DNA from: Nitrospirota bacterium
Lineage (GTDB): Bacteria; Nitrospirota; UBA9217
Length of the DNA: 48,518 bases
Assembly: GCA_043731355.1 (NCBI GenBank)
Contig: JAYTJE010000127.1
Span: forward strand, 1 to 48,518
Reading direction: 5' to 3'
Part shown: positions 29,061 to 36,486 of the stretch, piece by piece
Numbering within the stretch: position 1 is the stretch's first letter
Layout: each line of letters begins with the position of its first letter
Made by a program: the position numbers and the translations under genes
Notes under the pieces: model-generated
What the model was told of the DNA's origin: nothing
Database searches by the model: none
What the model saw: only the letters and a program-made list of their open reading frames with translations

Positions 29061-30371
29061 ATGAAATCCTTCCATATTATTACTTTTGGCTGCCAGATGA
29101 ACGAGCACGACTCCGAGCGGATGGCCGGTATCCTGAAAGGCCAGGAGTACGTCCAGACGGATGACGCCGCGACCGCGGACGTTATCATTCTCAATACGTG
29201 CAGCATTCGAGAAAAAGCGGAACAGAAGTTCTTCAGTGAATTAGGCCGCCTGAGAAGTTTAAAACTGGAGCGGCCCGGGCTTAGAATCGCGGTTGCCGGA
29301 TGCATTGCACAACAGGAAGGGAAGAACATTCTGTCCCGGGCCCCTTATGTGGACATGATCTTCGGCCCCTCGGATGTGGCGCGCGTGTCCGAACTTCCCC
29401 GGCTCGCAAATACCTGGTCCAATCCGCTCATCGAGATCGACGGTGATCCTGACTATCACCGGAAACAGCTGCCGGCATCGCGGTCCGACCGGCTGAAGGC
29501 CTGGGTCTCGATCATGTATGGGTGCAATAATTTTTGCACCTATTGTATTGTGCCTTATGTCCGGGGCAGGGAACGTTCACGGCCGCCGTCCGACGTGGTC
29601 AGTGAGGTCCGCGAGTTGGCGGAACAGGGCTTTAAAGAAGTGACCTTGCTTGGCCAGAACGTCAACTCCTATGGAAAAGGAGGGGGCGGTTCGGTCGATT
29701 TTCCAGGGTTGCTTGCGCTGGTGAATGAGGTCCCCGGCATCGAGCGGGTCAGGTTTGTCACCTCACATCCCCGGGACCTGTCAGCGGAGCTTATCGTTGC
29801 TCTTCGAGACCTGCCCAAGGTGTGCGAGTCCCTGCACCTGCCGGTGCAAAGCGGCGCGGACCCGGTCCTCACTGCCATGAACAGAAAATACACCCGGGCC
29901 GGATATCTGGACCGCGTCAAAGGGCTCCGTGCCGCAGTTCCTCTCATAACGCTTACGTCCGACATTATTGTAGGTTTCCCCGGTGAAACCGATGAGGATT
30001 TCTCTTTGACCCTGCGGCTGCTCCGCGAAGTTGAGTACGATAGCGTTTTTGCGTTCAAATACTCGAAGCGGCCGGGAACTGCCGCGCTTAAACTATCCGG
30101 CCATGTTCCAGCCGCAGTCAAGGAAGCACGGCTGGCCCAGGTGTTGGACCTCCAAAAGGAAATTTCATCCAGAAAAAATGCCGCTGCCGTAGGCACGACC
30201 TTTGAAGTTCTTGTGGAAGGGCAAAGCCGGAAAGGTGGAAAACTCACCGGCAGAACGCGGGGGAATAAAGCGGTTAATTTTGAAGGCACTGATTCCCTGA
30301 TAGGAACACTCGTTATGGTAAGAATTACGGCCGCCGGGGAAAGTTCGCTGGGCGGTGAACTATGCGCTTAG
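29061..30371 (+). CDS. miaB: tRNA i6A37 methylthiotransferase
   Basis: 'TFGCQMNEHDSE', 'NTCSIREKAE', CxxxCxxC 'GCNNFCTYCIVP', 'LLGQNVNSY', TRAM domain. Confidence 0.96.
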   Translation: MKSFHIITFGCQMNEHDSERMAGILKGQEYVQTDDAATADVIILNTCSIREKAEQKFFSELGRLRSLKLERPGLRIAVAGCIAQQEGKNILSRAPYVDMIFGPSDVARVSELPRLANTWSNPLIEIDGDPDYHRKQLPASRSDRLKAWVSIMYGCNNFCTYCIVPYVRGRERSRPPSDVVSEVRELAEQGFKEVTLLGQNVNSYGKGGGGSVDFPGLLALVNEVPGIERVRFVTSHPRDLSAELIVALRDLPKVCESLHLPVQSGADPVLTAMNRKYTRAGYLDRVKGLRAAVPLITLTSDIIVGFPGETDEDFSLTLRLLREVEYDSVFAFKYSKRPGTAALKLSGHVPAAVKEARLAQVLDLQKEISSRKNAAAVGTTFEVLVEGQSRKGGKLTGRTRGNKAVNFEGTDSLIGTLVMVRITAAGESSLGGELCA

Positions 30372-31627
30372 CTTTTGCCACCCTTGGGTGCAAAATCAAT
30401 CAGGTTGAGACAGACTCGATCCGGCGGGAAATGGCGCTGCGGGGAAATACCGTGGTCCCTTTTGACGAGGACGCTGATGTTTACATCATCAACACCTGCA
30501 CGGTAACGGCAAAGAGTGATTATACCTGTCGGCAGGTGGTCCGCGCCGCAACGCGCAGGGGGAAGGGGGCACGGGTAATCGTGACGGGCTGTTATGCCGA
30601 GACCCGTCCCCAGGAGCTTCTCGCAATTCCCGGCGTGGAACGGGTGATCGGGAACAGGGAGAAACTGTCTATTCCTGAATATCTCGCCGCCTCCTCTTCA
30701 GGACCTTCGGTCCAGTCCGCGCCGGACCTCAAGCATGCCGTGCGGGAAAAGACGCGCGGTTTTCTTAAGATCCAGGACGGATGCAACAACCACTGCTCGT
30801 ATTGTATCGTTCCCTTTGCCCGCGGCAGGTCCCGCAGTGCAATCCCCTCAACCATAATAAGCGAGTTTGAAAAAATGACCGATGCCGGATGCCCTGAAGT
30901 CGTGCTGACCGGAATTCATATCGGTACCTATGGGGCCGATCTGCAACCCGGTACAAATCTTACGGAACTTATAGCGAGTCTCGTCAACAAACGCGGCACG
31001 ACGAGGCTGAGACTCAGTTCTATCGAACCTCGGGAACTTACGGCCGGGACCATAGACTTGCTTGGCAAGGGATTGTGCCGGCATGTGCACATCCCGCTTC
31101 AGAGTGGAGACGATACCATCCTCAAGGCAATGAAGAGGAATTATACTTCTGAATTCTACCAGGAGCTCCTGATCGCTATTTCAAACAAAGTCCCGGAAAT
31201 TGCTCTTGGCGCGGATGTAATGGTGGGGTTCCCGGGAGAAGGGGAGCATGAATTTCACAATACCCTCCGGTTCATCGAGGCTTCACCCCTTACTCATTTG
31301 CATGTTTTCAGTTATTCACCCCGCCCGGGCACACGTGCGGCTGATATGGATGATCAGGTGCCTGAATCCGAGAAGAAAATGAGGAGTGAGATGCTGCGGC
31401 TCCTTGCCCAGGAGAAAAACCTTTCCTTTAGAAAAAAATTACTGGCGCGAGAAATCAATGTCGTGGTGGAAGCCGGCACAAATGCTTCACAGGGAAAGCC
31501 TACAGGCCTTACCGATAATTACATACGAGTGGTCATTGAGAACATTGATGACGGCCTGATAGGCAGGGAAATCCCCGTGAGAATTACTAAAGTAGACGGC
31601 AAATCAACGATTTCCGAGGCATTATAA
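30362..31627 (+). CDS. mtaB: tRNA t6A37 methylthiotransferase
   Basis: 'TLGCKINQ.E', 'INTCTVT', 'KIQDGCNNHCSYCIVP', 'LTGIHIG', 'LSSIEP', 'TDNYI'. Confidence 0.93.
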   Translation: MRLAFATLGCKINQVETDSIRREMALRGNTVVPFDEDADVYIINTCTVTAKSDYTCRQVVRAATRRGKGARVIVTGCYAETRPQELLAIPGVERVIGNREKLSIPEYLAASSSGPSVQSAPDLKHAVREKTRGFLKIQDGCNNHCSYCIVPFARGRSRSAIPSTIISEFEKMTDAGCPEVVLTGIHIGTYGADLQPGTNLTELIASLVNKRGTTRLRLSSIEPRELTAGTIDLLGKGLCRHVHIPLQSGDDTILKAMKRNYTSEFYQELLIAISNKVPEIALGADVMVGFPGEGEHEFHNTLRFIEASPLTHLHVFSYSPRPGTRAADMDDQVPESEKKMRSEMLRLLAQEKNLSFRKKLLAREINVVVEAGTNASQGKPTGLTDNYIRVVIENIDDGLIGREIPVRITKVDGKSTISEAL

Positions 31628-31680
31628 CGTCGCTCTATATGGCCATTTTATAAAAAAAGCGGGAAACCGGAATAAAGCCC

Positions 31681-31842
31681 CTATTCATTCATAATAATCG
31701 GGCAAATAGTTGTAACATGTTAATATTAAACAAGTAAATATGATTAATTAATATGCATATTGCATAATATACGCCTACAAAGCATCCCAAAAAATGGTTT
31801 CCACAGAGTTAATAACAGGTTATCCACAGGTTTTGTGAAGAG
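31681..31842. other. AT-rich segment followed by a cluster of DnaA boxes
   Basis: Perfect TTATCCACA at 31820-31828, GTTTCCACA at 31797, TTAATAACA at 31809, reverse TGTGAAGAG at 31834. Only about 10 G+C in 31711-31770. Confidence 0.55.
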
Positions 31843-31961
31843 CTTCTATAACCATACAGTAATTAAAAGATTTTTAACTTTATGCTGCTTGTTGTTCATG
31901 GTATGGCCTGTTCTTTCCAGCAAAATCATCGTTTTTTTATAGTTATCAATACTCATAAGTT

Positions 31962-33047
31962 CTACTGTTCTAATTTTAAGATTGTATAAATGGTATTGCG
32001 CTGAGCAGCGGAATATCCCGCATCCTTAATTAAATTGATGATTTCCTGCTTTGTCATTCGGAAGGTGATTCCTGCCGCAGCGACTACATTCTCTTCGAGC
32101 ATGGTGCTTCCAAAATCATTGGCCCCGAACTCGAGCGCCACTTGCGCAATTTTGGCGCCCTGCGTTACCCAGGATGCCTGAATGTTATCAAAATTGTCGA
32201 GCATAAGCCGCGACACCGCAAGGACCTTGAGATACTCGACAGCAGTGGCTGATCTTCCGCCAAGTTCGGTATTGCCCGGTTGGTAGGTCCAGGGGATGAA
32301 AGCGGTAAAACCCTTCTTCTCGTCCTGAAGTTCCCTGAGTCTCACCAGATGCTCGATGAGCTCCTTCCGCGTTTCAATACTTCCGAACATCATGGTGGCC
32401 GTGGTGGGCATATTAATGGCGTGCGCCGCTCTCATGACATCCGCCCATTCGCGCCAGCGGATCTTATTGGGGCTCACTTTTTTCCTGACACGGTCGACGA
32501 GGATCTCGGCGCCGGCGCCGGGAATTGAGTCAAGGCCCGCAGCTTTCAGCCGCTGAAGTGCCTGGTGTATTGAGATATGCGCCCGCTTTGCAATAGCGGA
32601 GATCTCCGAGGGTGAAAGGGAATGGACCTGAATAGTAAATTTTGACTTGATGGCGGAGAAAAGCTCTTCAAAATACTCTATCCCGAGCTCGGGATGCACG
32701 CCCCCCTGCATCAGGATCTGCGTGCCTCCCTGGGCGATCGTTTCTTCGATCTTGCTGAACAACTCATGCCTTGAAAGCAGGTAGGCCTCGGGACTGTCCG
32801 CATCCCGGTAAAATGCGCAGAACGTACACTTGTTCACGCAGATATTGGTGTAATTGATGTTTCTGTCGATGATAAAAGTGACGATCCGATTGGGATGGAG
32901 CCTTTTCCGAACGGAATTCGCAAGCTCTCCCAGGGTGAGCAGCTCAGCGTACCGCAGTAAATGGAGGCCTTCGGAACTGTCGAGACGCCTGCCCTCGGCC
33001 ACCTTCCGGGTTATGTTGTCCAGCATTTTCAGGGGAAGCTTTTTCAC
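31962..33047 (-). CDS. mqnC: Cyclic dehypoxanthine futalosine synthase (radical SAM)
   Basis: 'DRNINYTNIC...C.FCAF', 'QILMQGG', 'IPGAGAEIL', 'FTAFIPW', 'QASWVTQG', 'GANDFGS.M.EENVV'. Confidence 0.93.
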   Translation of the reverse strand: MKKLPLKMLDNITRKVAEGRRLDSSEGLHLLRYAELLTLGELANSVRKRLHPNRIVTFIIDRNINYTNICVNKCTFCAFYRDADSPEAYLLSRHELFSKIEETIAQGGTQILMQGGVHPELGIEYFEELFSAIKSKFTIQVHSLSPSEISAIAKRAHISIHQALQRLKAAGLDSIPGAGAEILVDRVRKKVSPNKIRWREWADVMRAAHAINMPTTATMMFGSIETRKELIEHLVRLRELQDEKKGFTAFIPWTYQPGNTELGGRSATAVEYLKVLAVSRLMLDNFDNIQASWVTQGAKIAQVALEFGANDFGSTMLEENVVAAAGITFRMTKQEIINLIKDAGYSAAQRNTIYTILKLEQ

Positions 33048-33048
33048 G

Positions 33049-34122
33049 TTAGCCCCAGATCTTTATCTCGTTATACAGAGTGTCCCGTTCCACCGGTATC
33101 CGGTCGGCCTGTTTGATCAGGTACACGATATCCGCCATCGTCATACTCCCGTCAGTGGTCCCGCCCGCGGCTTTGGTAATGCGTTCTTCCACCACGGTGC
33201 CGTCAAGGTCATCAACACCGAAGTTCAGCGATACCTGCGCGATCTTTTCCCCGAGCATGACCCAATAGGCCTTGATATGGTCGAAATTATCGAGCATCAG
33301 CCGTGAAATGGAAAGTGTCTTGAGATCGTCGAAGCCCGTGGTGTAAGCGGACTTCTTTATCTCCGTGTTCTGTGAATGGAAACTGAGGGGAATGAACGCC
33401 TGAAAACCGTTGGTCCGGTCCTGGAGTTCCCGCAGCCTGAGCAGGTGATCAATGCGGTGTTCCGCGCTCTCGATATGGCCATACAGCATGGTGGCATTTG
33501 ATTTAAGGCCGATCCGGTGCGCAGCCTCGATCACCTCAAGCCAGCGGCTGCCGCTTATTTTTTCAGCGCACAGCGTATTCCGGACCGCGCTGTCGAATAT
33601 CTCGGCGCCGCCGCCCGGCAGGGACCCCAGCCCGGCTTCACGAAGGCTTGTGAGGGTATCGTGAAGCCCCAGACCGGATAATTTGTCCAGGTAGTCTATT
33701 TCAACCGCGGTAAAAGCTTTTATGTGGACCAGGGGAAATTCAGCTTTGATCGCCCGCAACATGTCCAGGTACCATGCAAAGGGCAGGTCCGGGTGCAAGC
33801 CCGACACAATATGGAGTTCACGCACACCCTTGTCCGCTTCCCGCGCCTTGTTCAGGATGTCGTCAATGCTCATCTCGTACGCGCCCGGCTCGCCCTTGCT
33901 CCGGCTGAAGGCGCAGAACTTACAGCGGTTCACACAGATATTGGTGGGATTTATATGCATGTTCTGGACGAAGAAGACCTTGTTGCCGTTCTTCTTCATC
34001 GCAACATGGCTTGCCAGGCGTCCGAGCGACAGCAGCTCGGCGGACCTGAACAGTTCAATGCCGTCTTCGCGCGTCAGGCGGATATTGGAAAGGACTTTTT
34101 CTTTGATCGTAGCAAGGGACAT
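33049..34122 (-). CDS. mqnE: Aminofutalosine synthase (radical SAM)
   Basis: 'HINPTNICVNRCKFCAF', 'ELHIVSGLHP', 'HIKAFTAVE', 'SNATMLYGH', 'HIKAYW', 'DGTVVEE'. Confidence 0.93.
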   Translation of the reverse strand: MSLATIKEKVLSNIRLTREDGIELFRSAELLSLGRLASHVAMKKNGNKVFFVQNMHINPTNICVNRCKFCAFSRSKGEPGAYEMSIDDILNKAREADKGVRELHIVSGLHPDLPFAWYLDMLRAIKAEFPLVHIKAFTAVEIDYLDKLSGLGLHDTLTSLREAGLGSLPGGGAEIFDSAVRNTLCAEKISGSRWLEVIEAAHRIGLKSNATMLYGHIESAEHRIDHLLRLRELQDRTNGFQAFIPLSFHSQNTEIKKSAYTTGFDDLKTLSISRLMLDNFDHIKAYWVMLGEKIAQVSLNFGVDDLDGTVVEERITKAAGGTTDGSMTMADIVYLIKQADRIPVERDTLYNEIKIWG

Positions 34123-34199
34123 GGTTATTAATTGACCCCGCGGCAGGGGAGTCCGCGGTTTTTCAGATTCGTGGAGCAGGCGCGCATTGCAAAAAAATG

Positions 34200-35456
34200 T
34201 TACGCAGGGTGGTCGCTGATATAGATGATCCTGCCGTTAACCATGCTCATCATACAGGATTTTGTCTTCATGAGCAAGTCATAATGGATATCGCCGGATG
34301 ACTTCTCAGGGAAGGGGACTGCAATGAGGTCAGCTTTCTTTCCCGGAGCAAGAGACCCGATATCATCCGCCAGGCCAAGAGCCCTTGCTCCGCCTGTGGT
34401 CGCCAGTTCCATGATGGCACACGCATCCACCCCGTCCGCCTTATGAGCGCTGAAGGCATATCTCATTTCATCCCAGAGATTAAGGCTCGGAGAGCTGGCC
34501 AGGCTGTCGGTCCCGAGGCCTACGGTGATTCCGGCATGAAGCAGTTTTTGCAGCGGCATCCTGCCGACGCCTGTTTCGTGATTGCTTCGGGGACAATGCG
34601 CGACAGGTGTTTCCGAGCTTTTTATCAGCTTTATATCCTGGTCCGTGGCCTGGACCGCATGTATTGCCAGAAAACCGGGGCCGAGCAGTCCCAGGTCGCC
34701 GAGATACTCAAAGGGTGATATTGCTGAAGGGGCCCATGCGCGGTCCCAACCGGCCGCCTGATAAAGCTTTTCAAACCCGCTTTTTCCTCCTTGAAGCAGC
34801 TGCAGCTCATCCCGGGACTCCGCCACATGCATGCAAAGAGGCAGGTGTTTACTCCGGGCAATTTTACTGATAGCAAGCAGCGACGCGCGAGAGACCGTAT
34901 GAGGAGCATGCGGGGACAGACCCATACGGATGCAGGCGGTGTCCCGTGACAGGAGCTTGTTTATCCGTGACAACAGTGCCCGTGCGCGGTCCGGAGAATC
35001 CTCACCCTTGCTCATATCGATGATTTCATGAAAGATCCGGGCCCTCATACGCGATCGTTTCAGGACCCCGGGGCTGGCTCCGTGGGTGCATATTTCACCA
35101 ACACAGGTCGTTCCGCTTTCGATAACGCTCTCGACATTTCGAGAAGCCGCCGCAACGTAGTCTTGGTCACGCAGCGCTTTTTTTGCTTTTATCAGGTTGA
35201 GCACCCAATCAGGAAAAGCCTTTGCCCGTATTGAATTGAGCAAGGGCGGCAGCTCAAGGTGGGTATGCACATTGATCAGGCCGGGCATAAGAACAGCATT
35301 GCGCAGGTTTTTGACCGGGTGCTGCGGATACCTTTTTAGCAGGCGGCGTGAAGGTCCGACAGCGATGATTCTGTCGCGGTTTATAACCACGGCGCCGTCA
35401 ACGAGCAATGTTGCTCCTGGTTGCATGGTGAGGATTATTTGAGCGGTTAGTATCAT
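34200..35456 (-). CDS. Metal-dependent amidohydrolase, probable aminodeoxyfutalosine deaminase
   Basis: 'NVHTHLE', 'SPHAPHT', 'HVAES', 'HCPRSN', 'GTDSLAS'. Directly upstream of mqnE-mqnC. Start placed at MILTAQ. Confidence 0.75.
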   Translation of the reverse strand: MILTAQIILTMQPGATLLVDGAVVINRDRIIAVGPSRRLLKRYPQHPVKNLRNAVLMPGLINVHTHLELPPLLNSIRAKAFPDWVLNLIKAKKALRDQDYVAAASRNVESVIESGTTCVGEICTHGASPGVLKRSRMRARIFHEIIDMSKGEDSPDRARALLSRINKLLSRDTACIRMGLSPHAPHTVSRASLLAISKIARSKHLPLCMHVAESRDELQLLQGGKSGFEKLYQAAGWDRAWAPSAISPFEYLGDLGLLGPGFLAIHAVQATDQDIKLIKSSETPVAHCPRSNHETGVGRMPLQKLLHAGITVGLGTDSLASSPSLNLWDEMRYAFSAHKADGVDACAIMELATTGGARALGLADDIGSLAPGKKADLIAVPFPEKSSGDIHYDLLMKTKSCMMSMVNGRIIYISDHPA

Positions 35457-35528
35457 TACGTAATAGGGAACAGACCTCGGAACACTGACATACTCCGGCC
35501 AAAGGCACAAATAATAGCAATTAATTCA

Positions 35529-35556
35529 ATTTGACATAATATACATTATCGGACAA
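35529..35556 (-). other. dif: dif site (XerC/XerD chromosome dimer resolution site)
   Basis: On the - strand TTGTCCGATAA-TGTATA-TTATGTCAAAT, versus E. coli GGTGCGCATAA-TGTATA-TTATGTTAAAT. The core is identical and the XerD arm matches 10/11. Intergenic and AT-rich. Confidence 0.9.
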
Positions 35557-35622: not shown

Positions 35623-36486
35623 TCAGAATTTAATGCTTCCCATGCCGACTATCTTGTCTGAATCGTCATATCCGGGGGTCTTCTTATTCTGAAACTGAGC
35701 GCCGATGGTCAGGTTTATTCGCTCACTCACCATCCTCAGTCCGTAGGTAATTGCTGAATAGTCCAGTCCGTAGACATTGACGACAGACTTGCCGCCCACA
35801 AATCCGTACTCCAGGAACAGCTGCAGGTTCCTTTGCTTGCTTATGGGCAGCAGTATCCCTGCGTTCATGCTGCCATATCTGTCCCGGTATCTGCTATTGG
35901 TCAGATCGTGAAGAGCCATAGTGGCGTCGGCATAGATGCCAAGGATGTGCTCTTCCCAGGATATTTCACTTCCTGCTGAAACCCCTATATGTAAGCCCCA
36001 GTTCTTTACCTGCGTAAAACCACTCTTTGTGTCTTCTGAGGGAAACAGTGCGGTCAACAGGAACGACACGACCGGCACGGAAGAATACTCCTGCTGCGGC
36101 TTGAAATTCCACTTATAGGCTAACTCGGGATTGCCCACGCCGTGTGATCCTATTTGCGGGCCCGTTCCTGTCTGTTGGCTGAAGTAGGTGGCCCTGAAGG
36201 CCATTTCCATGTCGTGGCCGATCCCGGCAGCGAGCACAACCGGGGATTCATTCAGCGTATAGGCCGGTATGGCGCTGTCTTCGGATAAGGAAGCAAATCC
36301 GGCCTCAACAACGCCCGGAGCCAGGGTGTACGGCGTCGTGGTATAGAGCAGTCCCGTAAGACCATTCAAATTGATCGGACGGTTCACCATTTCGAGTTCT
36401 TCGGCTTGCAGGCCGGTTGACGGCAGGAGGGGTGTCGCAAACAGGACAGCCAGGATGACCAGAATAGCGCGATAAAATATGATCAT
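35623..36486 (-). CDS. Putative outer-membrane beta-barrel protein (paralog 1)
   Basis: Signal peptide, 'VNRPINLNGLTGLL', amphipathic beta-strands, 'GVGNPELAYKW', C-terminal Phe. ATGA overlap with the phosphomannomutase stop. Confidence 0.65.
   Translation of the reverse strand: MIIFYRAILVILAVLFATPLLPSTGLQAEELEMVNRPINLNGLTGLLYTTTPYTLAPGVVEAGFASLSEDSAIPAYTLNESPVVLAAGIGHDMEMAFRATYFSQQTGTGPQIGSHGVGNPELAYKWNFKPQQEYSSVPVVSFLLTALFPSEDTKSGFTQVKNWGLHIGVSAGSEISWEEHILGIYADATMALHDLTNSRYRDRYGSMNAGILLPISKQRNLQLFLEYGFVGGKSVVNVYGLDYSAITYGLRMVSERINLTIGAQFQNKKTPGYDDSDKIVGMGSIKF

Follow-up and report, generated by a model that had tools for sequence, protein, structure and literature searches.

A conserved array of DnaA-box-like sites between mtaB and mqnC near the replication terminus of Nitrospirota: a candidate DnaA control site

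In a genome of the phylum Nitrospirota (GenBank assembly GCA_043731355.1), the converging genes for MtaB and MqnC leave between them a gap of 334 bp (31628-31961), which holds four sequences resembling the 9-mer boxes of the replication initiator DnaA, only 3.7 kb from a dif-like site. What, then, is an array of this kind doing next to a Xer recombination site? The stretch of DNA analysed (hereafter the window) is the whole contig JAYTJE010000127.1, of 48,518 nucleotides (C127 in our numbering), from a genome of 2.87 Mb in 194 contigs which is 92.7% complete. A first-pass annotation had described the boxes and their coordinates, an AT-rich palindromic stretch and the convergent gap, and the letters are as it described them; it had offered as explanations a DnaA titration or reactivation site located at the terminus, a relic or secondary origin, or an origin lying next to dif. 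DnaA-box clusters outside oriC are of a known kind, and extra-origin DnaA control sites are known mainly from Escherichia coli (datA and the DnaA-reactivating sequences, DARS1 and DARS2) and from Bacillus subtilis (the DnaA-box clusters, DBCs). The first of the three explanations is the one that we retain. A DnaA-binding control site tied to the terminus is the best supported reading because the boxes are conserved, they have the geometry of the DARS core, their variants recur upstream of dnaA and the locus is tied to the terminus; the binding of DnaA is predicted from these features, and we put the reading forward tentatively, as falling somewhat short of probable.

Specifically, the element covers about 160 bp, the right half of which is the four-site array. 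Its parts are given below, together with the match of R1, a sequence-only model built from the array; boxes I to III' are those of DARS.

31710..31751, plus strand: left edge of the conserved element, TTGTAAC and then an AT-rich stretch; GTAAC and the AT-rich run align across genera
31752..31766, no strand assigned: inverted repeat TATGCA-TAT-TGCATA, with the conserved core TGCA-N3-TGCA at 31754-31764
31771..31794, plus strand: variable spacer with a small GC..GC palindrome (ACGC..GCAT) and an A-run at 31789-31794; length fixed, sequence variable
31785..31852, plus strand: extent of the R1 match (63.5 bits, E = 3.5e-17), the sole match in the genome
31797-31805, plus strand: site 1, GTTTCCACA, 2 mismatches to TTATCCACA; corresponds to box III'
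31809-31817, plus strand: site 2, TTAATAACA, 3 mismatches to TTATCCACA, within the palindrome GTTA-A-TAAC; corresponds to box III
31820-31828, plus strand: site 3, TTATCCACA, 0 mismatches, a perfect DnaA box; corresponds to box II
31829-31833, no strand assigned: 5-bp spacer GGTTT, variable in sequence and fixed in length
31834-31842, minus strand: inverted site, TGTGAAGAG (CTCTTCACA on the minus strand), 3 mismatches; corresponds to box I

The gaps between the four 9-mers are thus 3, 2 and 5 bp. To their left, the core of the inverted repeat is kept as GTGCAATTTGCA in the family alignment, and a related block, GCCTA..TTGTnCA.TTT, is seen by eye in family f11, likewise 60 nt from the boxes. 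The left-edge motif (31706-31720; TTTTGTAACTA in most genera) overlaps the MtaB stop codon in part: its TAA is that stop codon in most genera, and in this genus, in which MtaB stops 88 nt earlier, the motif is nonetheless retained. It is reminiscent of the core of the E. coli Ter site.

That the boxes are more than chance is argued by their conservation in relatives. When 41 genomes (our own and 40 relatives) were searched at the DNA level, the flanking genes were matched and, unexpectedly, so was the gap itself in other genera, at 83-86% identity over about 50 nt, against 72-75% for the adjacent MqnC coding sequence, and the core was conserved in all 14 aligned loci. When the 64 genomes of the order (one family, f1) were scanned with a 20-letter pattern (up to 2 mismatches), 39 matched, nearly always in single copy; among the 30 loci fetched for the best pattern matches, L060 and L068 do not align and are chance matches, and L063 is doubtful. 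In the family alignment (32 loci, including two added from the DNA search of relatives) conservation is weaker in the AT-rich part than in the boxes; at 31690-31770 this part has a GC content of 21%, and the window as a whole one of 54%. Measured from the ATG-proximal block to GATAAGCC, the core has a length of exactly 120 nt in 24 of 29 sequences, 119 nt in three and 121 nt in one, the remaining one being cut by a contig end. Among 39 distinct sequences from relatives (alignment A1), the four-site region is free of insertions and deletions in 38, and so is the 5-bp gap. R1 matches 21 of 27 sampled genomes of the family and 53 of 151 genomes of the phylum, and a degenerate 26-letter pattern searched in 185,579 species (one genome each) returned 37 loci, all titled as Nitrospirota-type metagenome-assembled genomes (MAGs). 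The boxes are therefore conserved in relatives, a point on which the first-pass annotation had made its proposal depend.

Additional, diverged copies of the array, one to three in number, occur elsewhere in some family genomes (L205, which is G056:C2:2658014, and L112, L207, L189, L206 and L208). One lies between a response-regulator gene and a hemerythrin gene, and one type of copy is nearly palindromic, so that R1 matches it on both strands.

The element appears to act at the level of DNA, neither as a folded RNA nor by encoding a peptide. None of the reading frames of the core stays open in all 29 sequences, and the small open reading frames (ORFs) of the gap are not conserved in relatives, none being shared between the element and MqnC; a peptide gene was rejected on these grounds. 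Rfam gave 0 matches at E <= 1 on 31300-32300, and RNAalifold on 28 sequences found no consensus structure (0.0 and -0.7 kcal/mol on the two strands), leaving a hairpin seen by eye around the GC..GC palindrome unsupported. Promoter-like sites were at chance in our scan (2 against 2.3 expected) and terminator-like sites numbered 0. Invariant short blocks set between variable spacers of fixed length would rather give the element the look of a DNA site bound by several proteins.

Position at the terminus and tie to dif

The locus lies at the terminus and not at the origin, as follows from GC skew, from dif and from the switch in gene strand. In G004, a genome of the same genus with a 2.35-Mb contig, the cumulative GC skew climbs for 200 kb, peaks at 1.03 Mb and then drops, and the element is found at 1,025,296 and dif at 1,030,290. 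The skew of G021 peaks near 710 kb, with dif at 713,098 and the element at 740,235, and the minimum falls at dnaA, as a control. In G056, in which dif is 317 kb distant, the skew does not switch within 200 kb of the element. In the window itself, 25 of the 30 long ORFs to the left of the gap are on the plus strand and 13 of the 14 to its right on the minus strand, and the cumulative skew rises to about 31 kb and then flattens. The genes dnaA and dnaN are on another contig (C123), and the element is likewise separated from dnaA by contig in all five relatives checked.

35529-35556, minus strand: dif-like site (predicted Xer recombination site), 28 bp, 3.7 kb from the array

This site, which we take to resemble E. 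coli dif, is a single conserved 28-bp sequence at the terminus, opposite the origin, and is predicted to be the target of XerC and XerD. Its 22-mer is present in 55 of the 64 genomes of the order, mostly in identical form, and in a relaxed form in 107 of the 151 of the phylum. In G036, a closed genome, dnaA and dif are separated by 50.6% of the circle, and in G076 by 49%. A misassembly between 31.9 and 35.5 kb, against which the first-pass annotation had cautioned, was not seen. The same layout is found in two same-genus genomes with Mb-scale contigs, and in a second assembly of a probable source run, which is not independent data, one contig bridges 31305-36500 with 0 differences.

The distance of the element from dif was determined in the 15 family genomes that have both on one contig. 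It is 3.7, 5.0 and 3.7 kb in the three genomes of this genus (g1), 25.6-27.4 kb in six genomes of g17, 40 kb in one of g12, 74 kb in one of g6, 92 and 317 kb in two of g19, 115 kb in one of g10 and 424 kb in one of g11. The 3.7 kb of the first-pass annotation is therefore correct here, as a figure particular to this genus; elsewhere it ranges from 3 bp to 424 kb.

The short end of this range comes from outside the family, where R1 gave 34 matches. Eight are no more than 60 bp from dif and share its strand (G027, G036, G112, G123, G141, G156, G159 and G180), one at 0.6 kb (G166) and seven at 3.4-3.8 kb (six genomes of f3 and one of f6), the rest being on other contigs, in genomes without a dif match, or elsewhere. 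The species scan adds two loci in which array and dif adjoin, L145 and L146, of which L146 carries the label uncultured Thermodesulfovibrio sp. At 12 dif loci picked regardless of R1, the best R1 match (E from 1.3e-4 to 0.06, 21 kb searched) stands directly before dif on the same strand in 7, and no array was found in the other 5 (families f5 twice, f10, f12 and f20).

In total, array and dif form a composite locus in 17 genomes, from six coded families and two unplaced MAGs, always on the same side and in one orientation. In each of them the end of a TTNNNNACA 9-mer lies 23 nt (in 13 loci) or 24 nt (in 4) ahead of the 22-mer, so that the inverted site ends about 3 bp from the 28-bp dif; 14 of the 17 have a further 9-mer, the end of which lies 34 or 35 nt ahead of the 22-mer. 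The order mtaB-array-dif was likely the first, and the menaquinone genes would have come between array and dif later; in this genus the block of MqnC, MqnE and an amidohydrolase (31962-35510, minus strand) stands there. We set aside the idea that the 9-mers are XerD half-sites: they do share a few letters with the outer part of the dif arm but, by reading, show no co-change with it between families.

To the right of the inverted site (31843-31870), AAAG...GATAAGCC or ATGTAAC recurs in the family at a constant position, by eye. This block might be what is left, in eroded form, of the dif arm which adjoins the array in other families.

Box grammar and comparison with known DnaA sites

Are the 9-mers boxes for DnaA? 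The columns that are invariant in A1 fall on box positions. Site 1 keeps T4, A7, C8 and A9, together with the following G, in 39 of 39 sequences, and site 2 keeps T1, T2, T5, A6, A7, C8 and A9. Site 3, which reads TTnT[C/T/A][C/A]ACA, keeps T1, T2, T4, A7, C8 and A9 and varies at positions 3, 5 and 6, while the invariant columns of the inverted site (T51, G52, T53, A56 and A58) are box positions 9, 8, 7, 4 and 2. Site 3 and the inverted site thus share invariant T2, T4, A7, C8 and A9, with position 3 free; the relaxed DnaA-box consensus permits free positions 3 and 5. In addition, the weak sites approach the consensus in more distant families. Site 2 is there TTATCAACA, TTAGCCACA or TTTTCAACA, nearer to the box consensus, and the inverted site is TGTGGAT in family f3 and TGTGGATAG in G093, whose array, ATATCCACA-ggg-TTAGCCACA-ct-TTTTCCACA-gatcg-TGTGGATAG, has all four sites within 1 mismatch of the consensus.

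The array appears to use the same box variants as the clusters found upstream of dnaA in the phylum. In 6 of 6 family genomes, [C/T]T[A/G]T[C/T][A/C]ACA, 2 bp and TGTGGA[T/C]AA are found about 45 nt upstream of dnaA; in our genome this pair is CTATCAACA-CC-TGTGGATAA (C123:12138-12157), followed by GCATGTTTGTAACC, and it is conserved in all six (the others being L147-L151). The first-pass annotation had pointed to GC skew and to the boxes of dnaA as means of placing the locus: the skew of G004 and G021 does place the terminus, but the box-cluster search at our own dnaA gave this one pair and no larger cluster. Larger clusters are found in other families, with five TT[A/T]TTAACA sites within 340 bp before dnaA in G036, three sites within about 220 bp before it in G027, and six at or just before the dnaA start codon in G166 (the last overlapping the start), where TTATCCACA is mixed with TTAT[T/C]AACA. 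The DnaA of our own genome is 41% identical to that of E. coli and retains the GG[KR]DH[ST]TV.H stretch of domain IV, which has a role in base contacts.

The spacing of the sites was compared with those of the E. coli K-12 DARS loci, read from the genome sequence:

DARS1: TTATCCACT-N5-TGTGGATAA-N3-TGTGTATTA
DARS2: TTATTCACC-N5-TGTGGATAG-N3-TGTGAAGAA
Element, minus strand: CTCTTCACA-N5-TGTGGATAA-N2-TGTTATTAA-N3-TGTGGAAAC

In the excerpts of Sugiyama 2019 (PMC6868365) used here, the DARS core consists of boxes I and II, opposed across a 5-bp space, and of box III in the same direction as II; box II of DARS1 has the full consensus, box III' is optional, and a head-to-head contact of DnaA is proposed across the 5-bp gap. 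At 31809-31842 the element has this very layout, and the site in the place of box II is the one that matches the consensus best, perfectly so in the window. Both the DARS loci and the element are non-coding, lie outside oriC and have a three-box core in which the CACA ends of I and II face each other across 5 bp, with an optional fourth box III'. Just as E. coli has more than one DARS, some genomes of this family have more than one copy of the array.

The two differ in that the gap between II and III is 3 bp in DARS and 2 bp in the element; according to the part of Stringer 2024 (PMC11317965) that bears on spacing, E. coli DnaA prefers box pairs 2 or 3 bp apart. In addition, DARS2 has sites for IHF and Fis, whereas the left half of the element consists of TGCA-N3-TGCA and an A-run, and DARS1 and DARS2, at 17.5 and 64 min, are away from dif, whereas the element is terminus-proximal. 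The likeness is one of geometry, with no sequence homology claimed, and ADP release, known for DARS, is putative here. As for datA and the DBCs, these are origin-proximal clusters of high-affinity boxes, to which datA adds an IHF site that it cannot do without, unlike the element, which is terminus-proximal (3.7-424 kb from dif in the 15 family genomes) and has four sites only, with the inverted one at 5 bp. The autoregulatory pair upstream of dnaA shares with the element the 9-mer variants and the presence of one inverted site; it differs in the spacing of the opposed boxes (2 bp, against 5 bp in the element) and in standing in front of a gene, whereas the element stands between two gene ends.

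Competing readings of the element

If the element is a DnaA control site, DnaA would bind the consensus site first and then recruit further protomers, those on the two upstream sites being arranged head-to-tail and the one on the inverted site head-to-head, as in the cores of DARS1 and DARS2. The resulting small oligomer may alter the pool of initiation-competent DnaA, either by nucleotide release, as in DARS, or by sequestration, as in datA and the DBCs. The element, ancestrally joined to dif and still near the terminus here, would be replicated last, its dose and occupancy would for that reason change only at the end of a round, and the next initiation would thereby be coupled to termination. 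A bolder version, which we judge improbable, makes a composite switch of array and dif: DnaA would be parked on the four sites, the last of them about 3 bp from the Xer site, and the loading of FtsK and XerCD at septum closure would strip or remodel it, so that completed segregation releases or recharges the initiator. On such a scheme, the two halves would have drifted apart in lineages like this one, leaving only the part that depends on replication timing.

How cells signal a finished round to the next is an old open question, to which a composite switch, if true, would contribute a direct molecular link from termination and division to initiation. The fixed-register joining of the array to dif in six coded families suggests a coupling, as yet undescribed, of the end of replication or dimer resolution with the initiator. 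A DARS-shaped array conserved across a distant phylum, if it is one, would give a first indication of great age and wide distribution for this geometry. Among the titles and abstract openings searched, no DnaA boxes beside dif and no DARS-shaped array of Nitrospirota were found. One of the composite loci belongs to a MAG labelled Thermodesulfovibrio, and since this genus has cultured members the idea lends itself to a direct test.

Several observations weigh against a DnaA control site. Taken within our own genome, the boxes do not exceed chance expectation: sites with up to 1 mismatch number 6 in the window and 7.76 +/- 2.67 in shuffles, of which 82 in 100 contain at least 6, perfect boxes number 14 in the 2.87-Mb genome, for which base composition predicts about 15, and by an ad-hoc cluster score the array ties for 4th to 7th in the genome. 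The suspicion of chance frequency that came with the original proposal is thus borne out within the genome and is answered by the conservation of the four sites in relatives. The most conserved stretch, ACAG.GTTA.TAACAGGTT, does not form a canonical box, and its letters extend beyond the box. Site 2 deviates at position 4, and many sites have A, not C, at position 6, where E. coli DnaA needs C. The agreement in box variants with the sites upstream of dnaA could be due in part to base composition (37-39% GC in f4 and f11, 55% here). Position is not strictly conserved either, given the range of 3.7 to 424 kb in the family. In the excerpts of Frimodt-Moller 2016 (PMC5010248), DARS2 and datA work less well near terC, and the known DnaA control loci are best near the origin or at mid-replichore and lose function when moved to terC. 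Lastly, the link of the element to the 3' end of mtaB is invariable, which this reading does not account for, and the strict 23-24-nt register that array and dif keep in the composite lineages agrees better with a role in Xer recombination than with a DnaA regulator standing by itself.

Such a role would make the array an accessory or architectural arm of dif, on which a bound protein, DnaA or another, touches XerC and controls the timing or direction of Xer recombination; here, in this genus, it would have become separated from dif and been retained for some secondary function. Plasmid cer and psi have this layout, a protein-binding array beside one arm of the Xer core site, with the accessory sequences on the XerC side. 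The 17 composite loci share with them a fixed order and orientation directly beside one Xer-site arm, the inverted 9-mer lying about 3 bp from dif, and they include 7 of the 12 dif loci picked regardless of R1. However, chromosomal dif sites are not known to carry accessory arms, the motifs resemble DnaA boxes and not sites for PepA, ArgR or ArcA, and in the window the array is 3.7 kb from the core site instead of directly beside it. In this family, f3 and f6 the array lies 3.4 kb to 424 kb from dif and yet has the top scores (E down to 1e-19), so a function that depends on contact with dif cannot account for the conservation; moreover, G056, G076 and G062 have extra copies away from dif, and 5 of the 12 dif loci lack the array. 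We give this reading a minor share of the probability. That the 9-mers bind a terminus protein other than DnaA, such as a terminus organiser or a polar fork barrier which makes the forks meet at dif, with the likeness to boxes partly a coincidence, we consider quite improbable. The best-conserved letters (GTTA.TAAC, ACAGG) do exceed the DnaA box, the array is one-sided and oriented relative to dif, and a fork passing mtaB reaches it before dif. Nevertheless, it is at the positions of a DnaA box that the sites are invariant, clusters of these 9-mer variants recur upstream of dnaA, and the spacing matches known DnaA oligomer sites. A fork trap of the Tus-Ter or RTP-Ter type was rejected, Tus (PF05472) and RTP (PF02334) having 0 matches in our own genome, 92.7% complete, with controls that matched E. 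coli and B. subtilis.

The regular position behind mtaB might point instead to transcription, the element being a 3' untranslated region or terminator of mtaB, the promoter of a small or antisense RNA, or a roadblock that shields dif from mtaB transcription. In 27 of 28 family loci, as well as in G027, G036, L145 and L146, the gene before the array is of the MtaB type; its stop codon is 87 nt before the 20-letter pattern in 20 of the 28, at a similar distance in L145 and L146, and 175-176 nt before it in the four loci of this genus. The GC..GC palindrome and A-run of the spacer, in which some flanking pairs are altered on both sides, a few two-sided changes seen only by eye, would also suit this reading. 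It is very unlikely in view of the lack of a consensus RNA structure on either strand and of an Rfam family, of promoter-like sites at chance, 0 terminator-like sites and no conserved small ORF between the element and MqnC; the composite loci, besides, leave no room for a gene between array and dif. Scarcely credible, finally, is a replication origin, whether active, secondary or a relic. Box-like sites beside a stretch of 21% GC would be expected of one, and the region upstream of dnaA has a single box pair in the family. However, the locus sits at the maximum of the skew (G004) or close to it (G021), not at the minimum; dnaA is at the minimum in G021 and opposite dif in G036 and G076, and it is on a different contig from the element in the five relatives. 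The relic or secondary origin of the first-pass annotation is not supported, with the locus at or near the skew maximum together with dif, and neither is its ori-next-to-dif layout, since skew, dif and the genes converging on the gap place the locus at the terminus. The DnaA control site is thus the reading that we keep, with the qualification already given.

Neighbouring genes and further observations

The genes on either side of the gap were assigned with Pfam and NCBIfam as follows.

29061-30371, plus strand: MiaB, NCBIfam equivalog over cut-off
30362-31627, plus strand: MtaB (tRNA t6A37 methylthiotransferase), TIGR01579 with 417 bits (cut-off 357), Pfam UPF0004, Radical_SAM and TRAM
31962-33047, minus strand: MqnC, TIGR03699 with 512 bits (cut-off 428)
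33049-34122, minus strand: MqnE, TIGR03700 with 517 bits, over cut-off
34200-35510, minus strand: amidohydrolase, match to the aminofutalosine-deaminase family below cut-off (220 against 320)

MiaB and MtaB are paralogous tRNA methylthiotransferases encoded by neighbours that overlap by 10 nt (29061-31627). A convergent gene follows the element in 27 of the 28 family loci and is mostly of about MqnC length; an MqnC-family gene was confirmed by Pfam or NCBIfam in the window and in two related loci (L203 and L198) only. Directly beside dif, an ORF of 287 amino acids (35623-36486, minus strand) matches no Pfam or NCBIfam family.

Elsewhere in our genome, the highest-scoring box pair is a tandem of CTGTTTATCCACAG, two perfect boxes 14 bp apart (G000:C1:8370-8410), which sits between divergent ORFs of 302 (minus strand) and 1152 (plus strand) amino acids, neither of them named. 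At G000:C154:18308-18328, two boxes in the same direction are 3 bp apart, one of them perfect, in an AT-rich region just upstream of the start of an SMC-like gene, read by eye from the translation. In the closed genome G036 (C1), of a related family, six more weak matches to the Bac_DnaA domain, of 153-266 amino acids, are scattered over the chromosome; five of them score equally, and they look like copies of the ATPase gene of a repeated element.

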